Source of the DNA: a virus
IMG/VR virus record: IMGVR_UViG_3300020057_000001
Span: 32,001 to 96,000 of that record
Direction: 5' to 3' (one strand)
Length of the DNA: 64,000 nucleotides
A program made the translations under genes and the position numbers. Positions 3 through 36,267 of this stretch are shown in pieces (position 1 is the stretch's first letter; each line of letters opens with the position of its first letter). The notes beneath the pieces are model-generated. The model was given only the letters and a program-made list of their open reading frames with translations, made no database searches and was not told the origin of the DNA.

Positions 3-428
3 GAAGACGTAAAGCTCTTGCTTGAGTCTTTAGCAGATGTGAACGCACTGCCCGCAGAAGCCGACATCTACGCTGGTGAAAACTGGTTGTTCGAGGGTGT
101 CGAGCATCTGATCGACGAGCTTACGTACCGTGGACAAATAGAGACGTTACTCAATCAAGGGCGCTTGAAGGCACCTGTCGCTGAAGCCCTGCTGAAGAGG
201 GGTCCTGGTAGACCCTCGGCGGCTATTCAACCTCCAAAGGGTACGAGCGGAACCGGTGCTGTACACCACAGTGGAAAAATTCAACTGTTTGCGTTGTCTA
301 GTAACTGGAACAAAGTAGTAAAAAAATTCCAAGAAGGCCCTACGCCGATACGTATGGCTACCAACTCGTTAGTATCGCGGGAACGTAAGCTCAGTAAGAA
401 GGACATGGAAGATGAAGAAAAATCTTAA
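3..428 (+). CDS. Hypothetical protein, 5' truncated by the window edge
   Basis: Frame open from position 3; overlaps the start of the next gene; no recognisable motif. Confidence 0.5.
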   Translation, partial: EDVKLLLESLADVNALPAEADIYAGENWLFEGVEHLIDELTYRGQIETLLNQGRLKAPVAEALLKRGPGRPSAAIQPPKGTSGTGAVHHSGKIQLFALSSNWNKVVKKFQEGPTPIRMATNSLVSRERKLSKKDMEDEEKS

Positions 429-1539
429 GCCAAAACTTAGAGCTATAAAACCTCTCCTGAGGCAAGTGCTTTTTCTTAAGCGCTTAGAAGCAGAGATGAA
501 CGCGGCCTACGACATGATCTCTAGCAAGCTTGTCGACGATATCATGAAGCAGGTTGCGCTTGTAGAACCCCTAGCCAAGTCAGACGACGACCTTCCAGAG
601 AACTTTTCAAGAAAGATTCCCCGCTTCGAGGTGGATCTTTCATCTATTAGCAAGCTCATAGAAAAATACACGGACGCTTTGCGCTACACGATTCTCGGTA
701 AAGCCGCAGGGAAAGAAGCCGAAGACGCTGTAACAGAGCTTAGGCTGAAGACTAAGATTCCCGCAGGTGGGGTGGTGCAAGGCTACCTTTCAGCCCTAGA
801 CGCGCACGCTGCATACATGAACGGGGTCCTTGAGAAAGAAGGGTCTATCTCGGGACGCTTTACCAAAAAAGCGCTTGACTTTATTAAAGAAAAAACCGGC
901 CTATTGGTAGATGCCAAAGTGCTCGAACTGAGGTCAAGGACCCTATCGACTTTGCAAGATTCTCTTAAAGAGATTGATATGCAGAATGATGCCGCTGTGC
1001 GTGAATACGTACTGGCTGAAAATACGCTTAAGGGAAACATCTCGTCGATTAAAGCTAAACAAGCACTCGTGAAAGAAGCTATCCAAGACGTGTTCGAAAA
1101 ACGCACACCGGTCTACCTCGTCAAGCAGCGTCTCAAGGACGTTACCCAAGAGTACGGGACCAATTGGACACGTGTCGTGCGCACGGAAATGGGTCTCGCT
1201 TCCGGTGCCGCTTCACAGCAAGCCATAGCGGATATTGCAGGGCACGAAGATCCCGTAGTCGCTATTGTTGTTACAAAAGACGACAGGTTGTCACCTGAGT
1301 GCCGTGACTGGTCGTTAAACGAAGACGGGTCGTACAAATATTTCAAAATGAGTGCGTTGAAACCCGCAGGATACAACCTTGGGCGAAAGAAAGCGGAGTG
1401 GAAAAATAGCGTACCAAGTCGACACTTCAACTGCCGCTGCCATATCGCGTACGTCCCTGCCGGTTTCAAACTTGACCTGTATGGTTCGCTGATCCCACTC
1501 ACAGACACCGAGGAACTGAAACTTGAAAACAACTCTTAA
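412..1539 (+). CDS. Phage head morphogenesis protein (SPP1 gp7 / Mu F-like minor head protein)
   Basis: RVVRTE motif, DDRLSPEC and C-terminal HFNCRC motif typical of the family. Confidence 0.8.
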   Translation: MKKNLKPKLRAIKPLLRQVLFLKRLEAEMNAAYDMISSKLVDDIMKQVALVEPLAKSDDDLPENFSRKIPRFEVDLSSISKLIEKYTDALRYTILGKAAGKEAEDAVTELRLKTKIPAGGVVQGYLSALDAHAAYMNGVLEKEGSISGRFTKKALDFIKEKTGLLVDAKVLELRSRTLSTLQDSLKEIDMQNDAAVREYVLAENTLKGNISSIKAKQALVKEAIQDVFEKRTPVYLVKQRLKDVTQEYGTNWTRVVRTEMGLASGAASQQAIADIAGHEDPVVAIVVTKDDRLSPECRDWSLNEDGSYKYFKMSALKPAGYNLGRKKAEWKNSVPSRHFNCRCHIAYVPAGFKLDLYGSLIPLTDTEELKLENNS

Positions 1540-2014
1540 TGATCTCGTGCAACGGAATGCAACCTCCACCACATTTCTTTGGACAATACCTAAGCGGACG
1601 CTTCGACGAAGAATTCGCGTGGCTTTTTACGTGTACGTTACCGGCCCTATACGGACAGTGCGGGTTGCCGCCGCGCATGTTTTCCAAAACCTCTGGCTGT
1701 TAAAGCACGTTTGGAGGTTCCGCCCTTGGGACGCGGCGTACAAGTACGCGCTCCTCTACGACATCTACGACAAAATGGTCATAGATTTTGAACGTGGAAA
1801 CGATATGGTAGACAGCTCAAAAAGTATCAAGAGCCTTAAGATTTGCAGAGAAGCATGTAAGCGGCTGAGGGATCCTGTAGATACATACGTAGACGTGACA
1901 GAAAAAGCAAAGCTTTTTAGTGACCGCTACGTTATATGTTCTGCGGACGATACTAAAGGTCCGAGAGAAACGCTAGCTAACGAAATAAAGCGCAACGGCA
2001 ACTGGTGGTGGTGA
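1523..2014 (+). CDS. Hypothetical phage protein
   Basis: 163-aa ORF coupled to the upstream gene; start uncertain. Confidence 0.5.
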   Translation: MKTTLNDLVQRNATSTTFLWTIPKRTLRRRIRVAFYVYVTGPIRTVRVAAAHVFQNLWLLKHVWRFRPWDAAYKYALLYDIYDKMVIDFERGNDMVDSSKSIKSLKICREACKRLRDPVDTYVDVTEKAKLFSDRYVICSADDTKGPRETLANEIKRNGNWWW

Positions 2015-2039
2015 GTTAAAGGTCTGCGCGGTCAGGTAC

Positions 2040-2249
2040 TTATCGTACACTTTTGTTTTTATCTCGTATAATAGACACTTCCACACGGTGCATGACGGTA
2101 CTCACTACCAGCATCAACCCTAGAGTCATTAAAAACGGCGCGACGTCCCGCTCCATGTTGTCGGTAAACTTCAAAAGTAGAACTGTTGCCACAGCAAACG
2201 ACAGGAATTGTAGCCCAACTAATGAATATAACAAGTAATATTTTTTCAT
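2040..2249 (-). CDS. Small two-TM membrane protein
   Basis: Two hydrophobic segments; GAGG RBS; sigma28-like promoter upstream. Confidence 0.6.
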   Translation of the reverse strand: MKKYYLLYSLVGLQFLSFAVATVLLLKFTDNMERDVAPFLMTLGLMLVVSTVMHRVEVSIIRDKNKSVR

Positions 2250-2276
2250 CTCATACCTCTTAAGTTTCTAAATTGT

Positions 2277-2303
2277 GTATCGTCAGGGTCTGTAAAAACT
2301 TTA
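2277..2303 (-). promoter_or_regulatory. sigma28/FliA-like promoter
   Basis: Minus strand TAAAGTTT-N11-GACGATAC upstream of 2040..2249. Confidence 0.7.
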
Positions 2304-2363
2304 ACACTATTTTGGAACAAGTCAAAAATAAAAGACTTGACGGCGCTAAACTTTAGTTAATTT

Positions 2364-2870
2364 TCATTGTCTTTGCTTCAGGAACGCGTCCACCATGTCA
2401 AACCAATAGTTGAGAAGCTGTAGGTGAGAAGGCAAGGTCGGGCTCATTACAGACGTATCGTCTTGCGTGTGGTCGAGGTTGTTGTAGGCGTGTCCGCACT
2501 CATGCCAAAGCAAAACTTTTCTTGTCTCGTAGCTTGCGGATTCCCAAAAAGCGCGTTTTAAATAAATAGTTCCAGACCCTACAAGCGATTTTCCGTTTAG
2601 TGTTCGGTAAGAGGCAAGTCCCACAGTTTCGGGACTTGATGTAGGTAGGTTGGCAAAGTTGTCGACTACTAAGATCTGCTTGACGACACCCGCTACATAT
2701 ACAGGATTATGCTTGTTCATATCCAAAAACTCGTTGAGCAGTTCTCTGATTTCAGGATGATTTTCAGGAACCTGTGCGGGTCTTGGAGCGTCTAAAAAGA
2801 GTGTGACGGAGGGCTCTTCGCCTCCACACGCTGTGAGAAAGACGGCTAGAACTAGCAGTAGTATTTTCAT
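2364..2870 (-). CDS. Lipoprotein zinc metallopeptidase (metzincin/matrixin-like)
   Basis: Lipobox LTAC; HECGHAYNNLDH followed by Met-turn SVMSP. Confidence 0.75.
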   Translation of the reverse strand: MKILLLVLAVFLTACGGEEPSVTLFLDAPRPAQVPENHPEIRELLNEFLDMNKHNPVYVAGVVKQILVVDNFANLPTSSPETVGLASYRTLNGKSLVGSGTIYLKRAFWESASYETRKVLLWHECGHAYNNLDHTQDDTSVMSPTLPSHLQLLNYWFDMVDAFLKQRQ

Positions 2871-2903
2871 TCTGTTTCCCGTGAGATGTCTAAGTTTTGA
2901 AAC

Positions 2904-3230
2904 TTATTGTTTTGGTGAGCCGTTTGCGCTAAAGCGCTTAATCGTTTTACCTAAAGAGCCTGCGGCACTTAGCTCTAGCTGCATGCCATCCGAAGGTGCT
3001 TCGTCGTAGAACGCCCAAAGCTCGTCACAGGTATCTAGAAAGCTCATGCCCGCCACCATACCTAGAATCCGTTCTTCTGGGTTGGTGTCGTCGAGCGCTT
3101 GGGGAAGGTAGGCGTGAGGAGCATAGGGCGCGTAGCCTTGGAGTACTGCTTCGCGACAATACATCAAGGCATTTTTTACATTTCTGTAGGGGTCAGCGGC
3201 AAAGGGCGAACATATAAACACACGTTTCAT
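2904..3230 (-). CDS. DUF4406/nucleoside 2-deoxyribosyltransferase-like Rossmannoid protein
   Basis: VFICSPF, PYAPH, CDELW and S.GM..E motifs. Confidence 0.65.
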   Translation of the reverse strand: MKRVFICSPFAADPYRNVKNALMYCREAVLQGYAPYAPHAYLPQALDDTNPEERILGMVAGMSFLDTCDELWAFYDEAPSDGMQLELSAAGSLGKTIKRFSANGSPKQ

Positions 3231-4018
3231 GTTGAGATTCCCATTAAGTATTCGAAGGCTTTTTCTGCTTGCATTGGAACCACTGCGTTACCGAGTCGCT
3301 TAATTCTGTCCATCCGAGAGGGAACCCCATAAATACCTCTGCCCATAGTGGGCTTAACAATGCGCCCGTTGGCACTGATGAATTCGTGATTTGCTGATAT
3401 TTTGAATTTCGTCCAAGGGGTAAATTCACAAATGCAGTCAGCGCTAGGCTGTTCCTTCGGTACTCTGACGGATGAGCGCCGTCTCTGTAATCCCTGGCTG
3501 CTAACGTCGGATATACTGTAAGCCAGGCAGAACCAACGTTCCCGCTTGTGTGGTGCTCCGACTTCTTGAGCGGATAGCATACACCAGCGACTATCATACC
3601 CTGCCTTGGTAAGTTCTTCGAGCACTCGATCCATTCCCCGTGTTCTGATTGCTGGGACGTTTTCAAGGAATATGAACGCGGGCTTGATCTCTTCGGCCAA
3701 GCGCATGATCTCGAAAAATAATCCACTTCGCTTTCCGTCCAAGATTCCTGCGCCTTTTCCAGCGACGGAGATATCCTGGCAGGGGAACCCTGCGACAATG
3801 ATGTCAATGACGGTGTCGAAGTGTTTTCCGGTGAGTGTAGAGATGTCGTCCCAAATCGGTGCTGCTTTGATGCTTTGATCACCCATTCGTGATAAGAGTA
3901 CAGACTGAGCGTGTCGGTCTTGTTCACAGTAAGCAATTGTGTTGATGTATTCTCTAAGCGCAAGGGTGTTTCCGCCGATGCCGCTAAATAAATCCAAGCC
4001 ATTTAATTTTTCCTTCAT
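3227..4018 (-). CDS. DNA cytosine-C5 methyltransferase, alpha chain (motif IX absent)
   Basis: LDLFSGIGG (I), GFPCQ (IV), ENV (VI), HKRERWF (VIII), LGNAVVP (X). Confidence 0.9.
   Translation of the reverse strand: MKEKLNGLDLFSGIGGNTLALREYINTIAYCEQDRHAQSVLLSRMGDQSIKAAPIWDDISTLTGKHFDTVIDIIVAGFPCQDISVAGKGAGILDGKRSGLFFEIMRLAEEIKPAFIFLENVPAIRTRGMDRVLEELTKAGYDSRWCMLSAQEVGAPHKRERWFCLAYSISDVSSQGLQRRRSSVRVPKEQPSADCICEFTPWTKFKISANHEFISANGRIVKPTMGRGIYGVPSRMDRIKRLGNAVVPMQAEKAFEYLMGIST
3244..4002 (-). CDS. Overlapping alternate-frame polypeptide carrying C5-MTase motif IX (putative beta chain)
   Basis: 252-codon frame nested in the MTase; ends in LLSPLWAEVFMGFPLGWT, matching motif IX. Confidence 0.65.
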   Translation of the reverse strand: MAWIYLAASAETPLRLENTSTQLLTVNKTDTLSLYSYHEWVIKASKQHRFGTTSLHSPENTSTPSLTSLSQGSPARISPSLEKAQESWTESEVDYFSRSCAWPKRSSPRSYSLKTSQQSEHGEWIECSKNLPRQGMIVAGVCYPLKKSEHHTSGNVGSAWLTVYPTLAARDYRDGAHPSEYRRNSLALTAFVNLPLGRNSKYQQITNSSVPTGALLSPLWAEVFMGFPLGWTELSDSVTQWFQCKQKKPSNT

Positions 4019-4030
4019 GCCGCGACCTCT

Positions 4031-4561
4031 TTACAACCGAACAATTCCTACACTCGAAAACGCTTCTTTAAACTTTTCACTTTCGTCTACAGAACCCGCA
4101 ACATAGATAATGGCATTCCCATGGGAAGGCGAGGCATGCGCTCCGTGTTGGGAATCAAACCGAATTCTCTTAGCAGGAATACAGAACGAAAACTCAGCCA
4201 TGCTGGGTACGCCCTTCCCTTGTGAGTTTTGGAAAGCTTCCAAGCTAAAGGCTAAAAAGATAGCGTGCTTTAGGTGCCCCGATGCTTTGTAGCGCATGAG
4301 CTTTTGCCAGAACAAAGACATGTTCGACTTGTTGCCCGTTTTTCCGCCGGGGGGATTGAGAAAGATAGAGCAGTCGATAGGCCATTCTGTCGTCAATCCG
4401 CCTTGTTCTTGATTGATAATCGTAGTGGCACCCACTCTAGCGTTGCCAAAAACGTCAGAGGCAGGGTCGAGGTCTATTGTCCCTAGCACCAGTTTCGCCT
4501 TTTCAACAATCAAAGTAGGGGTGTACCAAAGGTCAGTAGCAGAGCTGTGTAAGATGTTCAT
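4031..4561 (-). CDS. Phage DNA N6-adenine methyltransferase (Dam-like)
   Basis: DLWYTP, IDLDPAS, catalytic-type NPPG, RIRF. Confidence 0.75.
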   Translation of the reverse strand: MNILHSSATDLWYTPTLIVEKAKLVLGTIDLDPASDVFGNARVGATTIINQEQGGLTTEWPIDCSIFLNPPGGKTGNKSNMSLFWQKLMRYKASGHLKHAIFLAFSLEAFQNSQGKGVPSMAEFSFCIPAKRIRFDSQHGAHASPSHGNAIIYVAGSVDESEKFKEAFSSVGIVRL

Positions 4562-4860
4562 TCAACCGCGCCCACATCGCCCACGCGCAGCTCGTTTTCA
4601 CAAGGACCCATGACAGTGTATTCAGCCGATCCAACCTTGGAAACCAAGCTTCGAAACGGAATCTCTTCACCAAGCTCAGTAAGGACAACAAAACGACTCT
4701 CGGAGATCGACACAACCACTCCTCGCAGCGACCGTAGTACGTTCTTCCCTGTGCTCATTGAAAGAAGCAAAGTGTCCCCTTGCTCAAAGTATTCTGGATG
4801 GCTCGGGTCTTGTAAAAAATTTACAGCGTTTCCCTTAAGTAGTTCAGGCGTCGAGTTCAT
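4558..4860 (-). CDS. Hypothetical protein
   Basis: ORF coupled by ATGA-type overlap within the operon. Confidence 0.55.
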   Translation of the reverse strand: MNSTPELLKGNAVNFLQDPSHPEYFEQGDTLLLSMSTGKNVLRSLRGVVVSISESRFVVLTELGEEIPFRSLVSKVGSAEYTVMGPCENELRVGDVGAVE

Positions 4861-5545
4861 TCAATTCTCCACTATCAATTCGTAGTTTTAGCTCTTCCAT
4901 GGCGTTATCTTTTAACACTTTCTCTGCTACTATTTCAGTAACTTCACTGTAGGCATCGGTCAGCAACACGGCAGACTTTAGTCTCCATCTTAAAAAATCT
5001 ATTTTCTTTAGGAATCTTTTAAAGTCTTCTGGTACATGGTGCGTATTCATAGTCGCGTCTTTAAGATACAGGTCTTGCCACCTCGACGGGATCTCAACAA
5101 CGTCTAGATTTCCGCCAGTCATGTCTAACCAGTCGAGCGCAAGAATGACCTCTATTTTTTCTTCTGCCGCTAGCTTAAGCAGGAGGCAGTCACATATTGC
5201 TACTTGCTTCTCTTTAGAAAGAGCACTGTAGGCCGCGTTTTCAATCATTAGCGGGTTCGCCCACACCTCGACAAGCACCGCGTCTAGCACTTCTCTAGGC
5301 GCTTCGGTGGAATCTAGCTTTTTTTCTACTGCCATTTCGCATTCGTCGTAAAGCTGGAGTACCCGATAGTCTTGCTTGCAGCACAGCGAGATGTACTCAA
5401 ACGTTTTATCAGCTAGTACGTCCATGCTCCAGCGTTCGTGCTGCTCCTCGATCTCCCACTTAACGTAGAGGTCTAGAAGGTCGTAGCCTCTTTGCGACCT
5501 TGGGGAAAGCTTTACGTACTTGGGGTGCTTGAATATTCGTGCCAT
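4844..5545 (-). CDS. Hypothetical protein
   Basis: 233-aa ORF with AAGGA RBS. Confidence 0.65.
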   Translation of the reverse strand: MARIFKHPKYVKLSPRSQRGYDLLDLYVKWEIEEQHERWSMDVLADKTFEYISLCCKQDYRVLQLYDECEMAVEKKLDSTEAPREVLDAVLVEVWANPLMIENAAYSALSKEKQVAICDCLLLKLAAEEKIEVILALDWLDMTGGNLDVVEIPSRWQDLYLKDATMNTHHVPEDFKRFLKKIDFLRWRLKSAVLLTDAYSEVTEIVAEKVLKDNAMEELKLRIDSGELNELDA

Positions 5546-5570
5546 GGTAATCCTTTTTCAAACGTCGAGA

Positions 5571-5607
5571 ACTTGAATGTCTTCGGTAACAGTGCGGTAG
5601 ACTTTAG
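5571..5607. repeat. 37-bp direct repeat, copy 1 (duplicate of the helicase 3' end; contains a sigma28-like promoter)
   Basis: acttgaatgtcttcggtaacagtgcggtagactttag identical to 6433..6469; minus strand reads TAAAGTCT-N11-ACCGAAGA. Confidence 0.95.
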
Positions 5608-5612
5608 AAGGT

Positions 5613-6386: not shown

Positions 6387-6419
6387 AATGTTCTCCTAAT
6401 AGCCTAATCGGCGGTTGTT

Positions 6420-8155: not shown

Positions 8156-8947
8156 ATGGCGTATAGAATCTACGGGGTAGGCTCGGTTCAGTCTCCCGAC
8201 AAAGTGGGCGAAACTGTAAATCTAGAGGGCTTGGATACGTCCAACCTCCGCTATTTGAGCGACGAGCACGCCACCGACGACGTTGGTGGGGGTATGTTCG
8301 CAATATTAGGCGCTATTACCAGCTACAAGAAAATATTTAAACAAGAGGACGCCCAAACGCCTAGACAAAAGCGCTGCTGGGACGTCGCAAAAGCTCCTTT
8401 CCTTTACTTTGAAGCTGAGCTTCTTCACAGCCACCCGAACGCGGCTAGCGCAGAAGCCCTTATCACATGGTGCGCACAACACCCTGAGAATGCTTTAAAA
8501 ATTGGAGCTTCGATCGAAGGCGGTATCGTAAAGAGGGGTGACGCTGACGCAAAACACCTCGAGCAAACTGTAGGCGAGGGGATTGCCCTTACGATAAAGC
8601 CCATGATGCCGCGTTGCTCAGTGTTTCCCATGCTTGATTTACAAAAGAGTAACGTTCAAGTAGCTTACCCTAAAGCCTACGTAGCGCTCTTGCAGAAGTC
8701 GTCTAGTGATAAAGGGTTCATCGAGTTGAAGAAAAGCGAACAAATCCAACTTATTGCCGCGCGGCTAGCTCAGCTAAAGAAATCAGCCGAAGCTATGACA
8801 TCGAGCATGAAGTGCAATCACTGCGGAAAACCAACGTCTTTCTTCATCGGTAGCGATACACCCAACCGCTGCCCTTCGTGCTCTGCGGCGTTTTCAATGA
8901 CTTCGCTCTGGAAAGCTGTTAAAAAAACAACAAAGGATGGTAAATAA
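8156..8947 (+). CDS. Prohead (capsid maturation) protease with C-terminal zinc ribbon
   Basis: S...D..GE, conserved His (SDEH), GASIEG motif of caudoviral prohead proteases; CNHC...CPSC. Confidence 0.75.
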   Translation: MAYRIYGVGSVQSPDKVGETVNLEGLDTSNLRYLSDEHATDDVGGGMFAILGAITSYKKIFKQEDAQTPRQKRCWDVAKAPFLYFEAELLHSHPNAASAEALITWCAQHPENALKIGASIEGGIVKRGDADAKHLEQTVGEGIALTIKPMMPRCSVFPMLDLQKSNVQVAYPKAYVALLQKSSSDKGFIELKKSEQIQLIAARLAQLKKSAEAMTSSMKCNHCGKPTSFFIGSDTPNRCPSCSAAFSMTSLWKAVKKTTKDGK

Positions 8948-10877: not shown

Positions 10878-11114
10878 ATGATTCTCACTGTCAAAGTCTC
10901 CGTAAATAGAACCCACTTGCTCTGGGCAGCCTGCTTTCTTCTATGCCGCAATGAAAAGCTGTCAAAGTCCGCGGTGCTTAAGTTTTTGCGTGAGCAAATG
11001 GCAAGGTTTGGCGAAGACGAAAACTCGTTGTGCGGGTTGACGTGGCAACAGGATTACTGCGACCAACTCCCAGAAGCTGAAACATGGCTGAACAAAGCCT
11101 TTGATCGCGAGTAG
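10878..11114 (+). CDS. Hypothetical protein
   Basis: ORF with AGGT RBS. Confidence 0.55.
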   Translation: MILTVKVSVNRTHLLWAACFLLCRNEKLSKSAVLKFLREQMARFGEDENSLCGLTWQQDYCDQLPEAETWLNKAFDRE

Positions 11115-11216: not shown

Positions 11217-13079
11217 ATGGCGACCAGCTCTAAGTTGTTATATCTAGCGTCCGGCGTAAACCGCTCGCTCGACCTTCTCAATGCTTCCAACGTGTTCCAA
11301 ATCCGTGACAGCGTTCTCAAAATTGCCGCTGACGCTTCTGCAACGAACGTTATGTCGTTCAACTTGGCTGCATACTCGGCAAGCCGCTCTTTAACTTTCC
11401 CTGACAGCAACATCAACTTCGGTGCTTTTGCCCGTGGTTTTATCGCTGCTGGCTCGGCTAACCATGTCGTTATCAACGATGGTACAGGCGCTCTCTCTAG
11501 CGAAGCAGCTCTTGCGGCTTCTCGCGGTGGTTTCGGTGCTGACGTTTCTGCTTTCACAGGCGTTCTCAAAGCGTCCTCCGGTGTGTTCTCTGCTTCCGCA
11601 GTCGTTAACGCTGATATCAGCGCTGTTGCCGCTATTGCTTACAGCAAGTTGGCAGCCCTCACCTTTAACCGCGCCCTTATCTCTGACGGCTCGGGCGTAG
11701 TTACCGCTTCGGCAGTGACTTCTACTGAACTCGGATACGTTGCAGGCGTAACTTCCGCAATCCAGACACAGCTTAACGGTAAGCTCAACCTTACTGGCGG
11801 TACATTGTCCGGCGCGCTGGACTTGGGCGGCAACCTTCTTACAAACGTGGCTACTCCTGTATCCGCATCCGACGCTACTAACAAAGCTTACGTTGATGCC
11901 GCTATCAACGGACTAAGCTGGAAGTTGCCAGTTGTTGCGGCTTCGACAGGCAACTTAACCCTCAGCGGAGCGCAAACCGTTGATGGTGTTAGCTTAGTTG
12001 CAGGTCAGCGCATCCTCGTAAAAGACCAAGCTACTACTTCACAGAACGGTATCTACGTTGTAGCCGCTGGCGCATGGGCTCGCTCTGCGGATATGGACTC
12101 GCTCACTCCTCTAAACGAGTTCAACTCGGCTGCTGCGTTTGTCCAGTCCGGTACAGTCAACGCCAACCGTGGATTTGTTCAAACTGCTACAGTCACTACA
12201 ATCGGAACAGACCCTGTTGCGTTTGTCCAATTCTCCAGCGCATCTTCGCAGATTGCCGGAAGCGGAATCAGCATCTCTGGCTCTACAATCTCCATCAACT
12301 TGGCTACTAACCCGGGTTTGGAATTCTCTAGCTCCGCTCTCCGCATCAAGCTTGCTGACACTTCCCTCGCCCTTTCGGCAGGTGGCGTAGCTCTGGCTTT
12401 GGCTTCCTCAAGCGGTTTGACTGTCGCTAGCGGACTTTTGGTTAAAGTAGAAGCTTCCAACCCTAGCCTCCAGATCAACGGCTCGAATGAACTCGGCGTT
12501 AAACTCGCAGCAGCAGGCGCAATCGTCTCCGGCGCTTCTGGTGTCGCGGTTCAACTCGAATCTTCCCAACCTTCGCTCCAAATCGTAGCCAACGCTATCG
12601 GCGTTAAGCTCGACACCGCTCGCGGTCTTGCCAAAGACGCTTCTGGCGTATTCGTAAAAATTGACGGAAGCTCGCTTACGTTTAATGGTTCTGGAGAGTT
12701 GCAGGTAGGTTCATCCGACGCTACGCTCATTTCCTTTACCTCGGGTGAAGCCCTCACAGCAGGCGACAACGTGTACATCTCAGCAGCAGGCACTGTGTCA
12801 AAGGCACGTGCAAACGCTGAATCTACGTCGCTCGGCTATGTTGGTCTTGCTCGCACCACAGTTGGTTCCGGTGCAGCGGTGCAAGTAATTGTTGGCGGAC
12901 GTCTTAGCGGATTGACTGGCTTAAGCGCAGGCAGCCGTTACTACTTGTCAGCAGGAACTGCGGGTGTATCGACCACTACAGCTCCTTCCGCTTCTGGACA
13001 ACAAGTTGTGTTGGTTGGAATTGCAATGAGCGCTACTGAACTCATTGTTTCACCTGACTATAAAGTATCTATCGATTGA
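11217..13079 (+). CDS. Virion fibre protein (tail or head fibre)
   Basis: DATNKAYVD, TLSGAQTVDGV...RILVKDQ....NGIY phage fibre motif; Ala/Ser/Gly-rich; GTAAAAT at 11166. Confidence 0.75.
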   Translation: MATSSKLLYLASGVNRSLDLLNASNVFQIRDSVLKIAADASATNVMSFNLAAYSASRSLTFPDSNINFGAFARGFIAAGSANHVVINDGTGALSSEAALAASRGGFGADVSAFTGVLKASSGVFSASAVVNADISAVAAIAYSKLAALTFNRALISDGSGVVTASAVTSTELGYVAGVTSAIQTQLNGKLNLTGGTLSGALDLGGNLLTNVATPVSASDATNKAYVDAAINGLSWKLPVVAASTGNLTLSGAQTVDGVSLVAGQRILVKDQATTSQNGIYVVAAGAWARSADMDSLTPLNEFNSAAAFVQSGTVNANRGFVQTATVTTIGTDPVAFVQFSSASSQIAGSGISISGSTISINLATNPGLEFSSSALRIKLADTSLALSAGGVALALASSSGLTVASGLLVKVEASNPSLQINGSNELGVKLAAAGAIVSGASGVAVQLESSQPSLQIVANAIGVKLDTARGLAKDASGVFVKIDGSSLTFNGSGELQVGSSDATLISFTSGEALTAGDNVYISAAGTVSKARANAESTSLGYVGLARTTVGSGAAVQVIVGGRLSGLTGLSAGSRYYLSAGTAGVSTTTAPSASGQQVVLVGIAMSATELIVSPDYKVSID

Positions 13080-15937: not shown

Positions 15938-16195
15938 ATGAAGATATACGCCGGACACGCTATCGGAACAAGAACTTTGACTGCGGATTTGCAATTTTTT
16001 AAGAGAGACATTCTCGATTTTGGCTTTGAGGTCGCTTACGACTGCCCTGCCCTGGGGTGGACAGTGTGGGTGTCTCGGGCTTCGAATTTTAAAGAACGGA
16101 TGGAACTCTGTAAAAAGTTTGACTATCTAGTAACGCACCCTGAAGGTGTAGCCGAAGACGTAGTGTGCAGGTTGACACAGATCGTAAGTTTGTAA
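15938..16195 (+). CDS. Hypothetical protein
   Basis: GGGGG RBS; GTAAAAT at 15912. Confidence 0.55.
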   Translation: MKIYAGHAIGTRTLTADLQFFKRDILDFGFEVAYDCPALGWTVWVSRASNFKERMELCKKFDYLVTHPEGVAEDVVCRLTQIVSL

Positions 16196-16220
16196 AAGCG
16201 TTCCCGATCTCTCCTTACTC

Positions 16221-16255
16221 GCCTCTAGACGTTCTGTCTAGAGGCTCTTTTGTTT
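16221..16255 (+). terminator. Hairpin/terminator before the lysozyme gene
   Basis: gcctctagac-gttct-gtctagaggc followed by T-rich tail. Confidence 0.6.
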
Positions 16256-16284
16256 GGTTTAAAATACGGATTGAAGGAGAATCC

Positions 16285-16866
16285 ATGCCAAATCAACCAG
16301 TTATCACGTTTGACGACACAAAACTTATCAGAGATTCCGAGGGTCACTCGCTGACCGCTTACCCAGACCCCGCAACGAAAAACGATCCTATTAAAAAAGG
16401 GCACCCTTGGACAATCTCCTATGGGATTACAGGAGCATGGGTAAAGCCGGGCGTTGTGATCACACAAGCAGAGTCCGAGCTTAGATTTATGGAACTTATT
16501 AAAGTCTTCTGTAAAGATCTCGACGCATGCCTCACTGTAGAGCTTGGTAAAAACCAATACATCGCCGTCCTTTCTCTCTTGTGGAACATCGGCAAAGGTA
16601 ACTTTGCAAAAAGTACCCTGCTCAAAAAACTGAATGCAAAAGACTTTGCGGCGGCTGCCTTGGAGTTTGTAAAGTGGAATAAAGCAAATGGTGCTGTCAT
16701 GAACGGGCTAACGACCCGTAGAGCCAAAGAAGCCGCGCTATTCTCTACCCCATCTCAGGCTCCTAAGCTGTCTAAGTCTCTCACGGCGCCCGCTGTAATC
16801 GATTTTGAGCAGTTTACACAGACAACATGCCCTGTCACAGACGAAACAAATTTACCAAAGAAATAA
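16285..16866 (+). CDS. GH24 phage lysozyme (endolysin or virion muramidase)
   Basis: SEG....AY.D....WTI.YG.T triad, LLWNIG.GNF..STLLKKLN, GL..RR; GAAGGAG RBS supports the 16285 start. Confidence 0.9.
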   Translation: MPNQPVITFDDTKLIRDSEGHSLTAYPDPATKNDPIKKGHPWTISYGITGAWVKPGVVITQAESELRFMELIKVFCKDLDACLTVELGKNQYIAVLSLLWNIGKGNFAKSTLLKKLNAKDFAAAALEFVKWNKANGAVMNGLTTRRAKEAALFSTPSQAPKLSKSLTAPAVIDFEQFTQTTCPVTDETNLPKK

Positions 16867-29775: not shown

Positions 29776-29803
29776 GTCCGTCCTCACTGTTTGGGTAGTC
29801 TGT

Positions 29804-30088: not shown

Positions 30089-30121
30089 GCAATCTCCTGC
30101 TTGTTTCAAACTCTACCTATG

Positions 30122-30148
30122 GTTTCGGACGTGTCCGTTCAGACTTTA
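30122..30148 (-). promoter_or_regulatory. sigma28/FliA-like promoter
   Basis: Minus strand TAAAGTCT-N11-TCCGAAAC. Confidence 0.6.
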
Positions 30149-30162
30149 GCATTATTTTCAGT

Positions 30163-30501: not shown

Positions 30502-30706
30502 TCGACTCCCAGAGTTGTTCCATGCGCTCGGTTAATCTTACGACTTCCCGCGCAGTGTCCGTTCTAAATTCTGTAGAAAACCAGTTAGTAGGGGCTTCGT
30601 TCAAGAAGCGAAGCAGAGCCGCACGCTGCCGCGCCGTGTGTAGGTATTCCGAGGGTATGTATTCCGTCAAGATGCCTGATAAACTCGACGGGTAGTGATG
30701 CGTCAT
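30494..30706 (-). CDS. Hypothetical protein
   Basis: Operonic overlaps. Confidence 0.5.
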   Translation of the reverse strand: MTHHYPSSLSGILTEYIPSEYLHTARQRAALLRFLNEAPTNWFSTEFRTDTAREVVRLTERMEQLWESND

Positions 30707-31125
30707 TCTTTCTCCTTCATTAGGTAGTCTAGATAATCTTCTTGCCCTGCCGCAATATACGCTAGCGTCTCATAAGGAATTGATGCGTAAGCCTGTTCGT
30801 GCGACATGCCCTTCATGCGGTTTTTAATATAGTACGAAAGATAGGAACTGTAAAACTTAAGCCAGCCAATTTCTCGCACCTGCAAGCAGTGAACATTTTC
30901 GTGGGCGCGCACCTTGGGGTCAATCTCTACCTCAAAGAAAAACACGATAGGGTAAAGTACGAACCCGCTCGGTATTTTCTTACTGCTAGTGGGTAGATGT
31001 ACAAACACCGAGCACGCTTCTCCTTTTAGTGGAGGCAGAAATTTTAGCTCAACCATTGAAAGGTTAAGCCACAGTAACAACGCTATTAGTATCCACCGCT
31101 TCATAGTACTCCAAGTCCTTAACAA
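30703..31125 (-). CDS. DUF4157-like zincin with N-terminal hydrophobic segment
   Basis: AHENVHCLQ...G...FY..Y...AY..IPYE.LAY. Confidence 0.65.
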   Translation of the reverse strand: MLRTWSTMKRWILIALLLWLNLSMVELKFLPPLKGEACSVFVHLPTSSKKIPSGFVLYPIVFFFEVEIDPKVRAHENVHCLQVREIGWLKFYSSYLSYYIKNRMKGMSHEQAYASIPYETLAYIAAGQEDYLDYLMKEKE

Positions 31126-31433
31126 TATTCCGTGGAATCGTCTTCGTCCGTAGGGGTGGGTGCAAGAGGTTCAAAGAATTTTGCTGGGTTTGCCGTGCCG
31201 TGTACCTGTTTTAAGTTGGTGACGTCTAAGTTGATACCAAGCGGCACGCGGTCGCCTTTCATATTGCAGCACGCAATTCCCGTCACGTGTGCGCCCGAAG
31301 AAACCGATGTAGTTTTAAAAATTTTAAAGACTAAACGGCTACGTCCCATTTCATGAGTGGCGTAGAACACCTGGGTAGTTTTAGGGTTTTGGAGCTGTAT
31401 GCGGGCGTGTGTGAAACATTCTGTCAAGTTCAT
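31119..31433 (-). CDS. Hypothetical protein
   Basis: AGGAG RBS. Confidence 0.55.
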   Translation of the reverse strand: MNLTECFTHARIQLQNPKTTQVFYATHEMGRSRLVFKIFKTTSVSSGAHVTGIACCNMKGDRVPLGINLDVTNLKQVHGTANPAKFFEPLAPTPTDEDDSTEYC

Positions 31434-31468
31434 AAAAATCTCCTACGTGCGAACTAAGTCTACATTAG

Positions 31469-31494
31469 TTATCGGCAGGAATTTTCAAACTTGA
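31469..31494 (-). promoter_or_regulatory. sigma28/FliA-like promoter
   Basis: Minus strand TCAAGTTT-N10-GCCGATAA (perfect -10, spacer one base short). Confidence 0.65.
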
Positions 31495-31500
31495 GGAAAA

Positions 31501-31659
31501 TTATTTCTTTTCTTCTTTATTTCTGTACTTGAGAAAAGTCTCGTTTTGTTTCGCCCAGATAGCGTGGAAGGCTGTAAGTTCTAGCTCTTTTACGCGCTTG
31601 TCGAGTTCTTTAATAATTTCAAGCAGGTCTTTAACGGTAGGCTTGGCGGGCAACTTCAC
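31501..31659 (-). CDS. Small coiled-coil protein (52 aa, not in the ORF track)
   Basis: AAGGAG RBS, GTG start, MKLPAKPTVKDLLEIIKELDKRVKELE. Confidence 0.5.
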   Translation of the reverse strand: MKLPAKPTVKDLLEIIKELDKRVKELELTAFHAIWAKQNETFLKYRNKEEKK

Positions 31660-31714
31660 GATAACTCCTTAAGAAGATCAAGATGGACCTATATTGGGAA
31701 AGACTGGTAGGGAG

Positions 31715-32365
31715 CTAAAGCCATTTTTTGGCTTGCCCGATAGCCGGAAACTGTTCACAAAAAACGTGTTGTATAGCCAAAGCGATATCTCTGTGTTCTT
31801 TTTGCGTTGAGACATCGGTCCTAAGGTCGAGGTAGTGTATCCAGTTGCGGAGGTTGTTTGTCATGTAAAGAGTTGTAGAGGTACCTAAAGGAAGGAGAAA
31901 ACGCGCTTGCTCTTTAGCAATGTTTTTATCTAACGCCTCTTGGTAAAGCCTAGTGCTTAAGCTCTGAACTTGAATTTGCGCGTCCAGAAACCACGCAAGG
32001 TCTTCTTCGGACATATCATCTAAGGAGTTCTGACGGTTTTTCTTATCTTGCCTGCGGGCAGGGTAAGTCTCAAATTCAGTAACCGCTGCGTAGCGCTGCG
32101 AAAACTCTTGAAACGTTGCAGACCTATGCCGAAGAATTTGTGCAGCTATGGCGCGTGAAGTAGTGATCTCCACTGTCATGTAAGCGTGTTCAAAGACAGA
32201 CCAGTGGCTGTGCTCTATGCAGTAGTTCAAAAGTTTAGAGGCTGTTTCGTTGTTCATCTGGTTCGAGGGGTTAGACACGCGCGCCACGTAAGCTGAAAGC
32301 TGCTCTGCTGACATATGCTCTAGGTCACCCACGCCCTTGGTCACCGATACTAGTTTCACTTTCAA
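31715..32365 (-). CDS. thyX: FAD-dependent thymidylate synthase
   Basis: HWSVFEH, QILRHRSATFQEFSQRY ThyX motif, ARFLLP, Q.EHR. Confidence 0.95.
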   Translation of the reverse strand: MKVKLVSVTKGVGDLEHMSAEQLSAYVARVSNPSNQMNNETASKLLNYCIEHSHWSVFEHAYMTVEITTSRAIAAQILRHRSATFQEFSQRYAAVTEFETYPARRQDKKNRQNSLDDMSEEDLAWFLDAQIQVQSLSTRLYQEALDKNIAKEQARFLLPLGTSTTLYMTNNLRNWIHYLDLRTDVSTQKEHRDIALAIQHVFCEQFPAIGQAKKWL

Positions 32366-32374
32366 AATATGATC

Positions 32375-33865
32375 TCATTTCTTGCTTTGTTTGGGGAGCG
32401 TGTCCGGCTTTTTAACGTCTTTCAATTCGTTTATTGTTTCATGGTCAGCGTTCTCTAGCGCATTGTTAAACTCGTCGGTCTCATTCTTCGGATCGTAGCT
32501 GTAGTGCCCGATTTTTGAAATATTTACACCGTGGTGATTATTTAAGTGATCGATCACATCATTTGCAGCAGCCCTGTGGGTGCCTGTGACAAGAGACCCA
32601 TTCCCCATCTCACCATCGATCATGAAAGGCGGGATTTTGTTTTCACCTTTTATTTGAGACACGACCATTTGATGCACGTGCGGCCAATCGTGCACGACGT
32701 GGATCGGGTTGAAGTTTTGCGGATAATAAGGTTTCTGTGAGAATTTAGCAATAGTCTGTTTTAAAGCATGCGGTAAGTTGTTTGATTTTATGAGAGGGTT
32801 CTTCGGCGGTTTTGGAATTGCAATCTTTTTGGGAGCTTCAAAATCTGTTCCCGAACTCGATTCATCACGGGGATGCCCAACTTCGATATCTTTGCTGCTC
32901 ACTTTGAAGTGTGCCTCGGGGTGTGCGACGACGATTTCTTCTTCACTTGAATGGACTGGGTTGTGCCCTGGATAAAGTGAATGGCCGCCGGTGTGCAGCA
33001 CGTCTCTTAAGGGGACGTCCTTTTTCATGATGAGGTGGTGAGGGTGATCTTCTGAATCGTGCTCCCCCCGCCCTGTAGCGAAACGCGTAGCCATGTCACG
33101 ACTAAGAGACCAAGAGGACATGTGAGCCGAAGGGATTGTTACGGTTTTGTGGCGGTCCACTTTTGAAGCCTTCCCTACAGTGTAGGGGGACATACCGCCT
33201 TCGAGGTATTTTTCCTCGTCATGGTCTGTTACACCTAGTGAATCTTTCACCCGCTTTGCATAGCTTCCACCCACACCTCTATAGACCGTGATGTGCGGCT
33301 CGCCGTTAATCATTTTCTTGTTAATGTGGCTGTCGTTCATAATCGCTTTCTGTGAAGCAATCATGTGGTTAACGAGGTGAGGGGTTTGGTGCTTATGCTC
33401 GTCTGAGTGGCCCTTGTCACCTCTATGCGTTTCAATGTGTTCAGGCTCCCCCGTGTACATCGCTTTAATAGCCGCAAAATGGCTGGGCTCCACTTTTCTC
33501 TCGTATGAGTTCCAGAAGTCCCCAGATTGCTGCTCACCTTCCTCGGCGCCTCCACCTTGGTAGTTGGGGTGCGCTAAGATGGCTCCTGTGGAAAATTGCT
33601 CGTCAGGCGCGTGGCTCCATGCGTGTCTGAGTTGCTCTCTTGAGAGGTCCGGGTGTAGGTTGCCCGCTAAATTGTACAGTACATCCGATATTTGATCTTT
33701 GGGCGCGTGCTTCAGGTATTTTTCAACGTGACTTGGGGGAATAGGGTGTTCTTGTGCAGCAAGCATTTGAAAACCGCTGTGGTGTCTCAGTTTGTGTGCC
33801 ACTGCGATGGCTTTGTCCCAGTCCTGTGTCTGGGCGTAATGGTCTAAAAGTTGGTAGTCGTTCAT
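32375..33865 (-). CDS. Polyvalent protein: ADP-ribosyltransferase-like (R-S-E) domain plus ParB/Srx-like C-terminal domain
   Basis: VYRG, SSWS...A.RFA, EEEIVV; IPPFMID....LVTGTHRAAA. Confidence 0.6.
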   Translation of the reverse strand: MNDYQLLDHYAQTQDWDKAIAVAHKLRHHSGFQMLAAQEHPIPPSHVEKYLKHAPKDQISDVLYNLAGNLHPDLSREQLRHAWSHAPDEQFSTGAILAHPNYQGGGAEEGEQQSGDFWNSYERKVEPSHFAAIKAMYTGEPEHIETHRGDKGHSDEHKHQTPHLVNHMIASQKAIMNDSHINKKMINGEPHITVYRGVGGSYAKRVKDSLGVTDHDEEKYLEGGMSPYTVGKASKVDRHKTVTIPSAHMSSWSLSRDMATRFATGRGEHDSEDHPHHLIMKKDVPLRDVLHTGGHSLYPGHNPVHSSEEEIVVAHPEAHFKVSSKDIEVGHPRDESSSGTDFEAPKKIAIPKPPKNPLIKSNNLPHALKQTIAKFSQKPYYPQNFNPIHVVHDWPHVHQMVVSQIKGENKIPPFMIDGEMGNGSLVTGTHRAAANDVIDHLNNHHGVNISKIGHYSYDPKNETDEFNNALENADHETINELKDVKKPDTLPKQSKK

Positions 33866-36267
33866 TTGGCACCCCTGCGCCCAATCGCATGCGCAACTTC
33901 CCGAGCTTCATCCCAGTCCACGGTCACTTCGTTGTCTGATTTTTTTAGAGAAGGCCCCTTTTGCCTAAACTGCCTAAACTTCCAGAGGTGTTCGGCATCG
34001 TGGCTCGTAGAACCTGCCTCTAATGGAACTCTGAAATGTTCCTCTGCATAGTCGTACATTGCCGACGCAACCCCTTTACGCTGGTGCTGAGGAAACACCT
34101 CTGTCTCGTAAGACATAATGTGGTCGGTGGGCTTTTTAGAAAAAATAGGCACGCCCTCTGCGTCTTCGTTATTGTCCCAATCATGGTAACCTATGCTTGC
34201 AAATCCCGCATGGTTTCCTTGCTTATCGTGGGCATTAACGTAGATGCCGCCGTGTGGGGAAGTTGTGTGAGAGAGCGTGTAACCCTCTTTTTGCCAATCC
34301 CCATTTTCACCTTTGCCCAAAGCAGCGACCCCCACTTGCCCAGCACTCTTTTTTATCTCTGGCTGCGGTTCTAGCAGCGCATTCTTTTCAGGAAGTTGTG
34401 TAGTTTGGTGTGCGGTTTTCAACGAGCGTAGCACTGACGCGTATTTTGCAGCGGCATGCAAGACACTCGTCTCGTTTCCAAACTCTAGCTTAGCCATTGA
34501 GGAGTTTCTAGCAACACCTCCAACGCCCTTTTGCGAACTGTGGTCCGAGTGTCTGATTTTTGGATGGTCAAATGGGAAACGTATGTATCTTGAATTCGTT
34601 GTCTCTGCCTTTTCTTCCCCGTGAGGAATACCTGAATCTTTGAGTTGACTTAAAAAGGCGTCGCATTGCAGGCTGCGTGTCTTCTGAGACGCAATCGCAA
34701 AACCTTGTTTTTCAAATTCGTCAGGTTGGAGCCCTTGGATGTACGCATGAGCGGAAGGAAGATCAGGAAAGCTTTCGGTGACCCCCTTTTTATTAGAAAC
34801 TTTCACGGGTTTGTTTACGTGCTCCTCGAGCCAAATACTACGGGAGACGCCCAAAGGACGGTCCGCCGGTGTGAGCGGAACGTGAGTAATATGCAAAGGC
34901 TTACCCAAAAGTGCGTCTTTTTTGTGCGGGTGGCTGTTCCTCACGGAATAGTAATTTGACATTGCGCGAAGTTTTTGCAAGCCCGTGCCTGCTTTGTTCA
35001 AATCTTTCGCCCAAACAATCGGAGGTTTTAGTGGGTCGCCCTGCACAACTTTTCGCGTTTTCCCGTCCATCGTAGGCTCTGGTAAATCTTTCGCATTTAA
35101 TTTAGACCAAACCCGTTTCGCTGCGTTTGACGTTTTGCCGGTATCTGACGCAAGGCCGCCGTAATGATCTGCTAACTTTTGATAAACTTTTTGTCCTAGA
35201 CCCTTACCCCTGTGAGGCTTGTCTATGAAGGAATGAGACATATGCATCCCATCGTGGCTTTTGTCGTGAAATTCCGAGTGGTCGACTAAAAATTTCCCAA
35301 CCGTTTTGTTTTCGTGATGTAATTCCCAGTAGTGTCTTTTGGAAGTCCCCCGCTCTCCTGGTTCAGTCCAGTTTCTGTGATGGAGTGTATACCCGTTCCC
35401 AATTTCATGCATCGTGAGCCCTTGAGCGTCTTCAGCTTTGTTGAGCTTCTCGCCGTTCATTTTGGGAAACATTTTCAGTATCAGATTGTGTTTTGCAGCG
35501 ACGTGAAGGTTTTCTAGGATTTCTTTCGGTAAACGCGCATTCACACTAAACCACTTAAAGCCTAGAGCTTCCTTGTCAGGGTCGTTTTCGTTTGTTATTT
35601 TTTGCGGGACTTTCTCTAGTTCAACTAAAAACGCCTTGACCACTTTGCCGTTAGGTGTTTTGCACCTCAATTTAGCGTCTGTAATTTCAGCTAAGTCTTG
35701 TATGCCTGTCTCTTCCCTAAATTCCCTTATTGCGCCTTTTTCAAAATCTTCGCCGTTTTCGACGTGTCCGCCAGGAAAGGTCCACTTTTTATTGTCGTTT
35801 CTTTTCATCATGAGAAGCTTATTATCCGCTTTCACTGCAAGACACGCCACGCGGTTACTTTCCGATTTCCACAGGCGGGTAGACTTCTTGACAGGCTCCG
35901 TCGAGTAATCCTCAATTTCGCTTTGATGGACACGTTCAGGGTGACCGCCTAAAGTGTAGAAATTACCGCCGCCTTCTTGGAGACTTTTTCCATTGTCTAC
36001 GATTTGAAGCACTGGATACCACAAGCCCTTGTACTTCGCTGTGTGCCCTTTGGGAGCCTTGTTTGCATTTGCTTTAGCTCGTGCAATTGCGTCTGCAAGG
36101 CTTTTTGCAAGTGCCGGATAAGACTTTGTTAACTGCGTGGCAGTGCTCATTGCGCTTTTTGCGAGACGGCTATCGCCGAGCTTAAGAGCCTCCTCTGCAA
36201 TTTTGAGGGCTTCGCTAAAAGCTTTTAAAGCGTTTTGTTGAATTTGGGTAAGTGGTTGTTTTTGCAT
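33862..36267 (-). CDS. Polyvalent protein: Nudix hydrolase plus two GNAT acetyltransferase domains
   Basis: Nudix box PGGHVENGEDFEKGAIREFREETG; GNAT motifs HRGKGLGQKVY and HQRKGVASAMY; GAGGGG RBS before MQKQP. Confidence 0.8.
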   Translation of the reverse strand: MQKQPLTQIQQNALKAFSEALKIAEEALKLGDSRLAKSAMSTATQLTKSYPALAKSLADAIARAKANANKAPKGHTAKYKGLWYPVLQIVDNGKSLQEGGGNFYTLGGHPERVHQSEIEDYSTEPVKKSTRLWKSESNRVACLAVKADNKLLMMKRNDNKKWTFPGGHVENGEDFEKGAIREFREETGIQDLAEITDAKLRCKTPNGKVVKAFLVELEKVPQKITNENDPDKEALGFKWFSVNARLPKEILENLHVAAKHNLILKMFPKMNGEKLNKAEDAQGLTMHEIGNGYTLHHRNWTEPGERGTSKRHYWELHHENKTVGKFLVDHSEFHDKSHDGMHMSHSFIDKPHRGKGLGQKVYQKLADHYGGLASDTGKTSNAAKRVWSKLNAKDLPEPTMDGKTRKVVQGDPLKPPIVWAKDLNKAGTGLQKLRAMSNYYSVRNSHPHKKDALLGKPLHITHVPLTPADRPLGVSRSIWLEEHVNKPVKVSNKKGVTESFPDLPSAHAYIQGLQPDEFEKQGFAIASQKTRSLQCDAFLSQLKDSGIPHGEEKAETTNSRYIRFPFDHPKIRHSDHSSQKGVGGVARNSSMAKLEFGNETSVLHAAAKYASVLRSLKTAHQTTQLPEKNALLEPQPEIKKSAGQVGVAALGKGENGDWQKEGYTLSHTTSPHGGIYVNAHDKQGNHAGFASIGYHDWDNNEDAEGVPIFSKKPTDHIMSYETEVFPQHQRKGVASAMYDYAEEHFRVPLEAGSTSHDAEHLWKFRQFRQKGPSLKKSDNEVTVDWDEAREVAHAIGRRGAK

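Follow-up and report, generated by a model that had tools for sequence, protein, structure and literature searches.

What a short lysine-centered motif does at the domain borders of phage proteins is the question raised by the viral record IMGVR_UViG_3300020057_000001 from IMG/VR. The window analyzed here is a 64,000-nucleotide stretch comprising bases 32001–96000 of this complete 160,071-bp record, which carries direct terminal repeats; gene coordinates below follow window numbering unless marked "genome", which refers to the 160-kb record. The window encodes a predicted prohead serine protease (8156–8947, plus strand) and a multi-enzyme Nudix-GNAT-GNAT protein (33862–36267, minus strand; hereafter the Nudix-GNAT protein), and tetrapeptides of the form L-x-K-[S/A] recur in both. 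A previous sequence-only reading had proposed that the motif is a prohead-protease cleavage code for packaged proteins, and all of the tetrapeptides that it listed were found in place. The best overall explanation, which we regard as probable on balance, is that the motif is the recognition site of the phage's own protease and that the Nudix-GNAT protein is processed as head cargo. Among cultured phages, Mx1 of Myxococcus (169.6 kb) comes closest, though as a weak match with 22% identity in the capsid protein and 31% in the protease, and a megablast search of the head region against cultured phages returned no match.

Motif statistics across the 160-kb genome

In a simple greedy set of 174 open reading frames (ORFs) covering 96% of the 160-kb genome, L-x-K-S occurs 43 times compared to 19.1 ± 4.4 in shuffles that preserve each protein's own composition, and L-x-K-[S/A] occurs 75 times compared to 44.8 ± 6.5. 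After correction for 174 proteins, three of the 174 are significant: a scaffold-like protein of 282 residues (genome 117547–118395; four LxKS versus 0.10 expected, p = 4e-6), the 263-residue protease (four versus 0.17, p = 3e-5), and the Nudix-GNAT protein (five versus 0.46, p = 1e-4). The LxKS excess is confined to the structural gene blocks (21 versus 6.7 expected, p = 7e-6) and the Nudix-GNAT protein, with 7 versus 7.8 expected in the non-structural gene blocks and 6 versus 0.6 in two cargo candidates. A position weight matrix (PWM) trained on the scaffold and capsid sites of relatives only finds 18 sites of at least 12 bits in this genome versus 1.8 in shuffles. When 48,000 three-residue patterns are searched blind, leaving out the ankyrin and solenoid repeat families, L.KS ranks fourth (34 versus 15.1, p = 2e-5); with the repeat families left in, the top patterns are all repeat-derived. 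The motif is genuine and non-random.

The earlier reading had counted VKKS and LGKG among the motif instances. These residues are present, but neither V.KS nor L.KG is more than slightly enriched in any data set, and we rejected Val at P3 and Gly at P1′ as site variants. The motif had also been expected to predict a cargo list; with about 19 LxKS expected by chance genome-wide, the motif alone gives no reliable list of this kind.

The prohead protease and its predicted substrates

On homology and conserved catalytic residues, we classify the 263-residue protein encoded at 8156–8947 as a divergent S78-like (HK97/SPO1-type) prohead serine protease with predicted proteolytic activity. In tblastn comparisons it matches the "putative prohead protease" of Mx1 (6e-13) and also the head maturation protease of LpeD (Herelleviridae), and hhalign alignment of a 42-sequence family profile to the LpeD protease gives a probability of 98.3% and E = 1.9e-14 over 144 columns. 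The LpeD protease in turn passes the Pfam Peptidase_S78 model (PF04586) with 26 bits at a cut-off of 21. An exhaustive HMMER search collected 829 relatives, and among 151 representatives used for residue conservation H38 is kept in 149/151, H93 in 143/151 and S119 in 149/151. S119 sits in a G-x-S-[IV]-E-G context; in the alignment with LpeD, H38 falls on YEH and S119 on GFSIEG. These matches, the profile alignment and the conserved His and Ser residues are the grounds for the classification. Sequence searches with the protease in Pfam, PHROG and the Protein Data Bank, and with nine close homologs in Pfam and PHROG, found nothing beyond zinc-ribbon matches, and a scan of the full genome with the PF04586 profile gives no match even at an E-value of 10; given this lack of a direct Pfam S78 match, we regard the family as a divergent branch that the current model does not cover. 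The protease gene has the portal gene 9 kb upstream of it and a head-decoration gene 2 kb downstream, and the scaffold and capsid genes are 77–96 kb away; relatives and Mx1 share the compact order portal, protease, scaffold, capsid.

The protease domain occupies approximately residues 1–160 and is followed by four LxKS sites (LQKS162, LQKS179, LKKS191 and LKKS207) and a C-terminal S27E-like zinc ribbon. LQKS162–165 (8639–8650, plus strand), right behind the protease domain, is a predicted self-cleavage site on grounds of conservation, and LKKS207–210 (8774–8785, plus strand), ahead of the zinc ribbon, is a second conserved site with L207, K209 and S210 invariant in the homolog alignment. Both DLQKS (162–165) and L-x-K-S (207–210) are invariant in ten homologs of 38–80% identity, LQKS162–165 aligns with VQKS of the LpeD protease, and [LIVMF]xK[SAGT] stands directly behind the protease domain in 82/151 representatives, including forms of 500–1200 residues. 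The C-terminal 53 residues (8786–8947) form a CxxC...CxxC zinc ribbon that resembles ribosomal protein S27e and lies behind the last LKKS. This ribbon is conserved in the closest protease subfamily only and may be a targeting or DNA-binding tail freed by self-cleavage. Around residue 240, the Mx1 "prohead protease" (L007:11944–15663, 1239 residues) contains a second version of the segment that opens the Mx1 capsid protein, placed directly behind a K-A bond and reading FAKA|MEAGNFNAAPSTLQGGSALQ in the protease and LRKA|MEAGNFNAKPSTLVQGSAMQ in the capsid protein.

Family-wide counts show that the enrichment depends on the register of the motif. In 150 protease representatives L.KS occurs 202 times versus 39.2 expected (5.2x), with L.KT at 3.4x and L.KA at 2.8x, and the controls stay near or below expectation: reversed SK.L 1.07x, L..KS 1.12x, LKS 0.94x and A/E/G.KS 0.4–0.7x. 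In the related head-module set of 44 viral contigs, with 949 ORFs surrounding the protease gene, L.KS occurs 274 times versus 101.7 expected and SK.L stays at 0.96x. The enrichment that the sequence-only reading had proposed as a check is seen across the proteome of this genome and, against reversed and shifted controls, in the protease proteins and head-module loci of its relatives.

The same motif marks the proteins expected to be processed during head assembly. The N-terminus of the major capsid protein (genome 136584–138134; PHROG 752) reads MIPGVNNDLMNQIVSGFERLNK|SFTAAG, with a PWM score of 13.5 bits at the site. Seven homologs of 33–35% identity keep L-x-K-S-F at this column behind leaders that differ from one another, the corresponding residues are LRKA|M in Mx1 (making Met15 the predicted first residue of its mature protein) and ISKA|F in LpeD, and 17/17 further capsid orthologs carry L-x-K-A at residues 10–30 followed by a conserved xEAG segment. 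The capsid N-terminus, another check suggested with the motif, thus carries it here (...FERLNK|SFTAAG) and in every capsid homolog examined. The 19 most enriched ORFs of the related loci match no protein of this phage; 17/19 are 240–363 residues long with 4–8 LxK[SA] each (expected, about 0.5). Many of them immediately precede the capsid gene, and we read these ORFs as the scaffolds; the Mx1 scaffold likewise has LAKS and LKKS sites. Around the K[SA] dipeptides of these scaffold ORFs, Leu is enriched 6.3x and Met 3.5x at P3, and Glu 3.1x at P2′. Portal orthologs have sites within the first 60 and last 50 residues, and the portal of this phage (655 residues) carries GMSK|S at 33–36, VQKS at 621 and LHKS at 633.

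In dozens of related phages L-x-K-S/A is conserved at the capsid N-terminus, after the protease domain, repeatedly within scaffolds and at the ends of the portal, and it matches the HK97 cut; in line with the original proposal, we hold it very probable that the S78-like prohead protease uses this motif as its cleavage code. Three observations weigh against this assignment. The blind-search rank of L.KS fails multiple-testing correction by itself; counts from orthologs share ancestry and so are not independent; and the AlphaFold model of the protease, with a predicted local distance difference test (pLDDT) score of 57, is too poor to establish an assemblin fold, its best structural matches all remaining at Z < 4, with varicella-zoster virus protease (Z 3.8, 120 aligned residues) and T4 gp21 (Z 3.3, 115) among them but neither standing out. 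A blind rank short of genome-wide Bonferroni significance, taken with the helical, Lys/Ser/Glu-rich nature of scaffolds and leaders, could also be read to mean that the motif is no protease site but reflects composition or secondary structure, for instance amphipathic helices rich in Leu, Lys and Ser or acidic linkers of scaffold-like proteins. We consider this very improbable, as the effect is register-specific with composition fixed per protein: reversed, shifted and contracted controls give approximately 1.0 and A/E/G at P3 are depleted. The capsid site is moreover invariant while the preceding leader varies in length and sequence, and the motif fits the bond measured in HK97 (PMC10275583).

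A separate question is which enzyme would cut. Some phage capsids, that of 80alpha among them, are matured by proteases of the host (as cited in PMC8569155), and processing of polyvalent proteins after injection was considered by Iyer et al. (PMC5512222); the cutting enzyme could accordingly come from the host or be a different peptidase of the phage, or the cuts could take place only once the proteins have entered the host. This appears improbable to us. The motif co-varies with the protease family, at 5.2x in the protease proteins and with a conserved site at the domain end, and SPO1, HK97 and Mx1, whose hosts (Bacillus, E. coli and Myxococcus) are unrelated, all show this pattern.

The Nudix-GNAT-GNAT protein and other motif carriers

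Outside the head genes, the candidate for packaged and processed cargo is the Nudix-GNAT protein, singled out by its domains and its motif enrichment. It is numbered here as an 801-residue protein or, where stated, as an 830-residue ORF, in which K277 becomes K306. Pfam identifies NUDIX (4.5e-17) and, for the second GNAT, Acetyltransf_1 (1.2e-9); the first GNAT (residues 340–398 of the 830-residue ORF) falls below Pfam cut-offs, with Acetyltransf_CG at 1.6e-6 and Acetyltransf_7 at 3.1e-6. No peptidase domain was found with Pfam. The protein carries LAKS35, LTKS46, LAKS53, VKKS126, LWKS132, LNKA275, LNKA423, IKKS638, LGKG650 and LKKS774, and its seven LxK[SA] compare with 1.04 expected (p = 1e-4).

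The positions of these sites follow the domain layout. LAKS35, LTKS46 and LAKS53 (36100–36165, minus strand) fall in a helical N-terminal leader (helices at residues 8–68 in a low-confidence model), which would be a targeting peptide. LWKS132–135 (35863–35874, minus strand) lies four residues before the first Nudix strand, and K-[S/A]-E stands directly ahead of Nudix in 5/5 homologous contexts: LWKS|ESN, AGKS|ESN, LKKS|EDK, LKKA|EDM and LKKS|EDK. The modeled Nudix core (residues 139–271) is the sole folded part of the model, and LNK277|A comes just after it; this site, LNKA275–278 (35434–35445, minus strand; LNKA|ED), lies between Nudix and the first GNAT, has the top PWM score of the protein (17.8 bits at K277), and aligns exactly with LEKS|ED in homolog P0017 and LNKA|ED in homolog P0018. 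LNKA423–426 (34990–35001, minus strand) is located behind the first GNAT and aligns with ELAKA of P0017, and LKKS774–777 (33937–33948, minus strand; PWM 12.1 bits) is located behind the second GNAT, after the Acetyltransf_1 match (657–746 in 801-residue numbering).

Homologs mark the same borders, supporting the earlier claim that the motif sits at domain boundaries of this protein. P0017, P0018, L057 and L058 keep sites at domain borders despite a different domain order, and in P0018 the Nudix domain has been relocated to the C-terminus with its border site kept. Two viral contigs of 110–122 kb encode stand-alone Nudix ORFs of 232 residues (L057:2767–3462 and L058:5559–6254), each with an 80-residue leader ending in PLKK[A/S]|ED just ahead of the Nudix fold; judged from the sequence, the leader resembles a targeting peptide that closes with a cut site. 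In Mx1, a 1479-residue protein that combines GNAT, ART-PolyVal (PF18760) and Nudix domains is encoded 3.3 kb downstream of the capsid gene and contains five LxK[SA] versus 1.17 expected, with predicted cuts after LKK606, LSK1063 and LEK1253. Of the features of polyvalent proteins, at least two unrelated effector-type catalytic domains in one chain are present here as NUDIX plus two GNAT; a genomic or domain link to head packaging is present only in Mx1 and absent from this genome, and an embedded peptidase for self-release is carried only by the distant relative P0019.

Because the code flanks each folded domain, the most likely role of the Nudix-GNAT protein is that of a head-packaged polyvalent cargo, and packaging and processing are favored by a narrow balance. 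Several points count against it. One homolog has A instead of L at P3 ahead of Nudix (AGKS). The AlphaFold model of the protein has a pLDDT of 39, too low to map linkers, with only the Nudix borders structurally placed. A distant Nudix fusion with its own XkdF-type protease (P0019; Peptidase_S78_2) has no LxK[SA]. The gene is on the minus strand, adjoins thyX, and lies ~24 kb from the protease gene and 68 kb from the capsid gene, a location far from the head genes that does not point to late expression. In the literature searched we found no proteomic or biochemical data for this phage or for Mx1 virions.

The same location suits a second account, in which the code is real for capsid, scaffold, protease and portal only, the Nudix-GNAT protein and other enzymes are cytoplasmic early or middle products that are never packaged, and the LxK[SA] linkers are inherited module borders or have another role. 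The gene stands in a non-structural minus-strand block next to thyX, its product is not fused here to a MuF, portal or protease domain, and the sites in three further proteins described below (ART/ParB-like, MuF-like and lysozyme) are single, chance-compatible hits, with one motif versus 2.0 expected among MuF-like orthologs. We judge this account unlikely, though with an appreciable chance of being right. The rest of the non-structural block lacks an excess while the Nudix-GNAT protein reaches a per-protein p of 1e-4, its sites bracket domains and recur in homologs of shuffled order and in the stand-alone Nudix ORFs with their 80-residue leader, and the homologous ART-Nudix-GNAT protein of Mx1 is encoded close behind the capsid gene.

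A wider cargo list beyond the Nudix-GNAT protein is not established, as single sites in the three other proteins named by the sequence-only reading are each compatible with chance (p = 0.12–0.27). The first is a 496-residue protein (32375–33865, minus strand) with ADP-ribosyltransferase (ART)-like R-S-E motifs and a ParB-like GTHR motif, in which LIKS358 had been taken to separate the two domains; this lone site is compatible with chance (p = 0.27). The domain labels themselves find no match in Pfam or PHROG, the protein has no relatives among the viral contigs, and BLAST comparison with the Mx1 polyvalent protein is not significant; what stands behind them is the motifs and a weak likeness of the model to the DRAT ADP-ribosyltransferase family (TM score 0.46). 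The second is a MuF/SPP1 gp7-like minor head protein (412–1539, plus strand; PHROG 115, 1.7e-6) with LAKS54 (VEPLAK|SDDD; PWM 15.5 bits). Its closest ortholog (L011, 36% identity) has LAKT51 at the same place as a weak counterpart; the other 13/14 orthologs have neither the N-terminal extension nor the site, and motifs are not enriched among the orthologs. The third is a GH24-type endolysin (16165–16866, plus strand; PHROG 7, 8.3e-39), suggested earlier as possible cargo. Its LSKS202 lies just behind the endolysin match (residues 53–198), in a non-structural block with no LxKS excess, and with p = 0.12 is probably a chance occurrence.

Other ORFs carry the motif or border the head genes. A 78-residue ORF between the protease and head-decoration genes (10878–11114, plus strand) contains LSKS28 and LNKA71, two sites versus 0.09 expected. 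The avian adenovirus fiber N-terminal repeat (PF06536) is matched twice in the neighboring 620-residue head-decoration or fiber protein (11217–13079, plus strand; PHROG 2647, 1.5e-32). The best predicted site of the genome by PWM, LPPMMK29|SEDNLI at 20.3 bits, is in a 249-residue ORF with no family match in a non-structural block (genome 106146–106895, minus strand; L003:12146–12895). Directly downstream of the capsid gene is a 508-residue HNH/homing endonuclease (genome 138245–139771; L005:9245–10771; PHROG 3339, 2.8e-85). In three relatives (P0038, P0083 and P0115) the protease is fused to HEAT/LRV solenoids, and the same repeat type makes up a five-gene solenoid array in this phage (genome 118976–134772). 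MEKLAK|AG occurs at the N-terminus of 4/5 array members, and the same four carry TAPLTK|SE, at ~40–50 residues from the C-terminus in three members of 830–900 residues and at residue 732 in one of 1578 residues. Fusion of such solenoids to the protease in relatives, together with the sites in the array, suggests that the array proteins are head-internal and processed.

Proposed processing and comparison with known systems

The analysis establishes the motif statistics, the homology of the protease and the conservation of its sites; we infer the scissile bond, packaging, timing and injection, and propose the following course of events. The recognition site would be L-x-K↓[S/A], with Leu or, in fewer cases, Met at P3, Lys at P1, Ser or Ala at P1′, and often Glu at P2′. 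Inside the assembled prohead the protease would cleave away its own C-terminal zinc-ribbon tail, strip ~22 N-terminal residues off the major capsid protein at the site described above, chop the acidic scaffold into peptides and trim the portal ends. The helical leader would bring the Nudix-GNAT protein into the prohead, where cutting before or at DNA packaging would set free the Nudix hydrolase, both acetyltransferases and a fragment from the middle of the chain, to be delivered with the DNA. A broader version of this model, in which an HK97/SPO1-type prohead protease is a general polyprotein processor and Mx1-like phages load multi-enzyme chains through one L-x-K|S/A code for cutting into separate injected effectors (Nudix, GNAT and ART), is one we put forward tentatively, at somewhat less than even confidence; within it, HEAT/LRV solenoid proteins would probably be loaded through the same code.

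If the code holds, it provides a simple sequence rule for which proteins a whole group of ~150–180-kb phages packs and injects, and protease-released capsid cargo would extend from the Glu-specific T4/phiKZ enzymes to the Lys-specific HK97/SPO1 branch. This group has 829 protease relatives in metagenomes and is mostly uncultured, with Mx1 as a cultured member. Were the protease a general polyprotein processor, the cargo proteome of this large group could become readable from sequence. Tryptic proteomics is blind to the predicted cuts, since trypsin also cuts after Lys. Both the cutting rule and the idea that polyvalent proteins are packaged predate this work, so the proposal is an extension and introduces no new principle.

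The closest parallel to the predicted cut is in HK97, where the gp5 delta domain is removed by cleavage at K103/S104 (PMC10275583). The gp4 protease (MEROPS S78) is, as here, a serine protease with conserved His and Ser; it cuts Lys|Ser with a hydrophobic P3, as predicted here, and the HK97 record shows the cut site as TFNK|S, with ELTKS, ELIKS and LIQKA in the degraded delta domain and GLTKS behind the gp4 protease domain. We know of no non-assembly enzyme substrates of the HK97 protease. Unlike HK97, this phage has a scaffold that is a separate protein, a capsid leader of only ~22 residues and a protease with a zinc-ribbon tail. Its head module resembles that of SPO1 (gp3.2 protease, gp3.3 scaffold and gp6.1 capsid), and across the wider family the capsid proteins share ~27% identity from end to end. 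The SPO1 scaffold gp3.3 (L056:2680–3414) contains nine [L/I]-x-K-S in 244 residues versus 0.75 expected, making the same code readable in a classical model phage, and the SPO1 capsid protein has DALNKA|LEAG at residues 21–24 and its protease PLDKS behind the domain. In a literature search we located no published capsid cut site for A511, LP65 or SPO1, so that the Lys-Ser cleavage of the A511 capsid precursor cited in the sequence-only reading is unconfirmed. This phage and Mx1 are unclassified, unlike the Herelleviridae, and the head genes here are dispersed across the genome. The phi12 protease accepts K or R at P1 (PMC8569155). HK97 and SPO1 show the same pattern, and the code itself is thus the known HK97/SPO1-type specificity, extended here and not peculiar to this phage.

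The packaging side of the proposal has its counterpart in T4-type systems. T4 gp21 (S77), phiKZ gp175 and SPN3US gp245 use short linear codes to process head proteins (PMC5512222, PMC9026906, PMC7411985, PMC10052503), and the T4-type prohead protease, like the one proposed here, cuts the capsid protein, the scaffold, itself, and packaged proteins that are injected (IPI-III and Alt, an ADP-ribosyltransferase). The T4, phiKZ and SPN3US proteases cut after Glu (L/I-x-E, S/A/G-x-E and A-x-E), whereas cleavage here is predicted after Lys, and T4 removes only a short targeting peptide where several predicted internal cuts would here separate whole enzymes. Packaging and processing have been predicted for polyvalent proteins, and T4 Alt is a packaged protein (PMC5512222). 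As in those described by Iyer et al. 2017 (PMC5512222), unrelated effector domains are joined in one phage chain, Nudix and GNAT here and ART-PolyVal in the Mx1 homolog; Iyer et al. propose embedded peptidases (MPTase or a C-terminal assemblin-like domain), whereas the cutter proposed here is a separate prohead protease acting through the code. What is new here is the placement of L-x-K-[S/A] on either side of the Nudix and GNAT domains in the protein encoded at 33862–36267, a placement also seen in homologs whose domains are rearranged.

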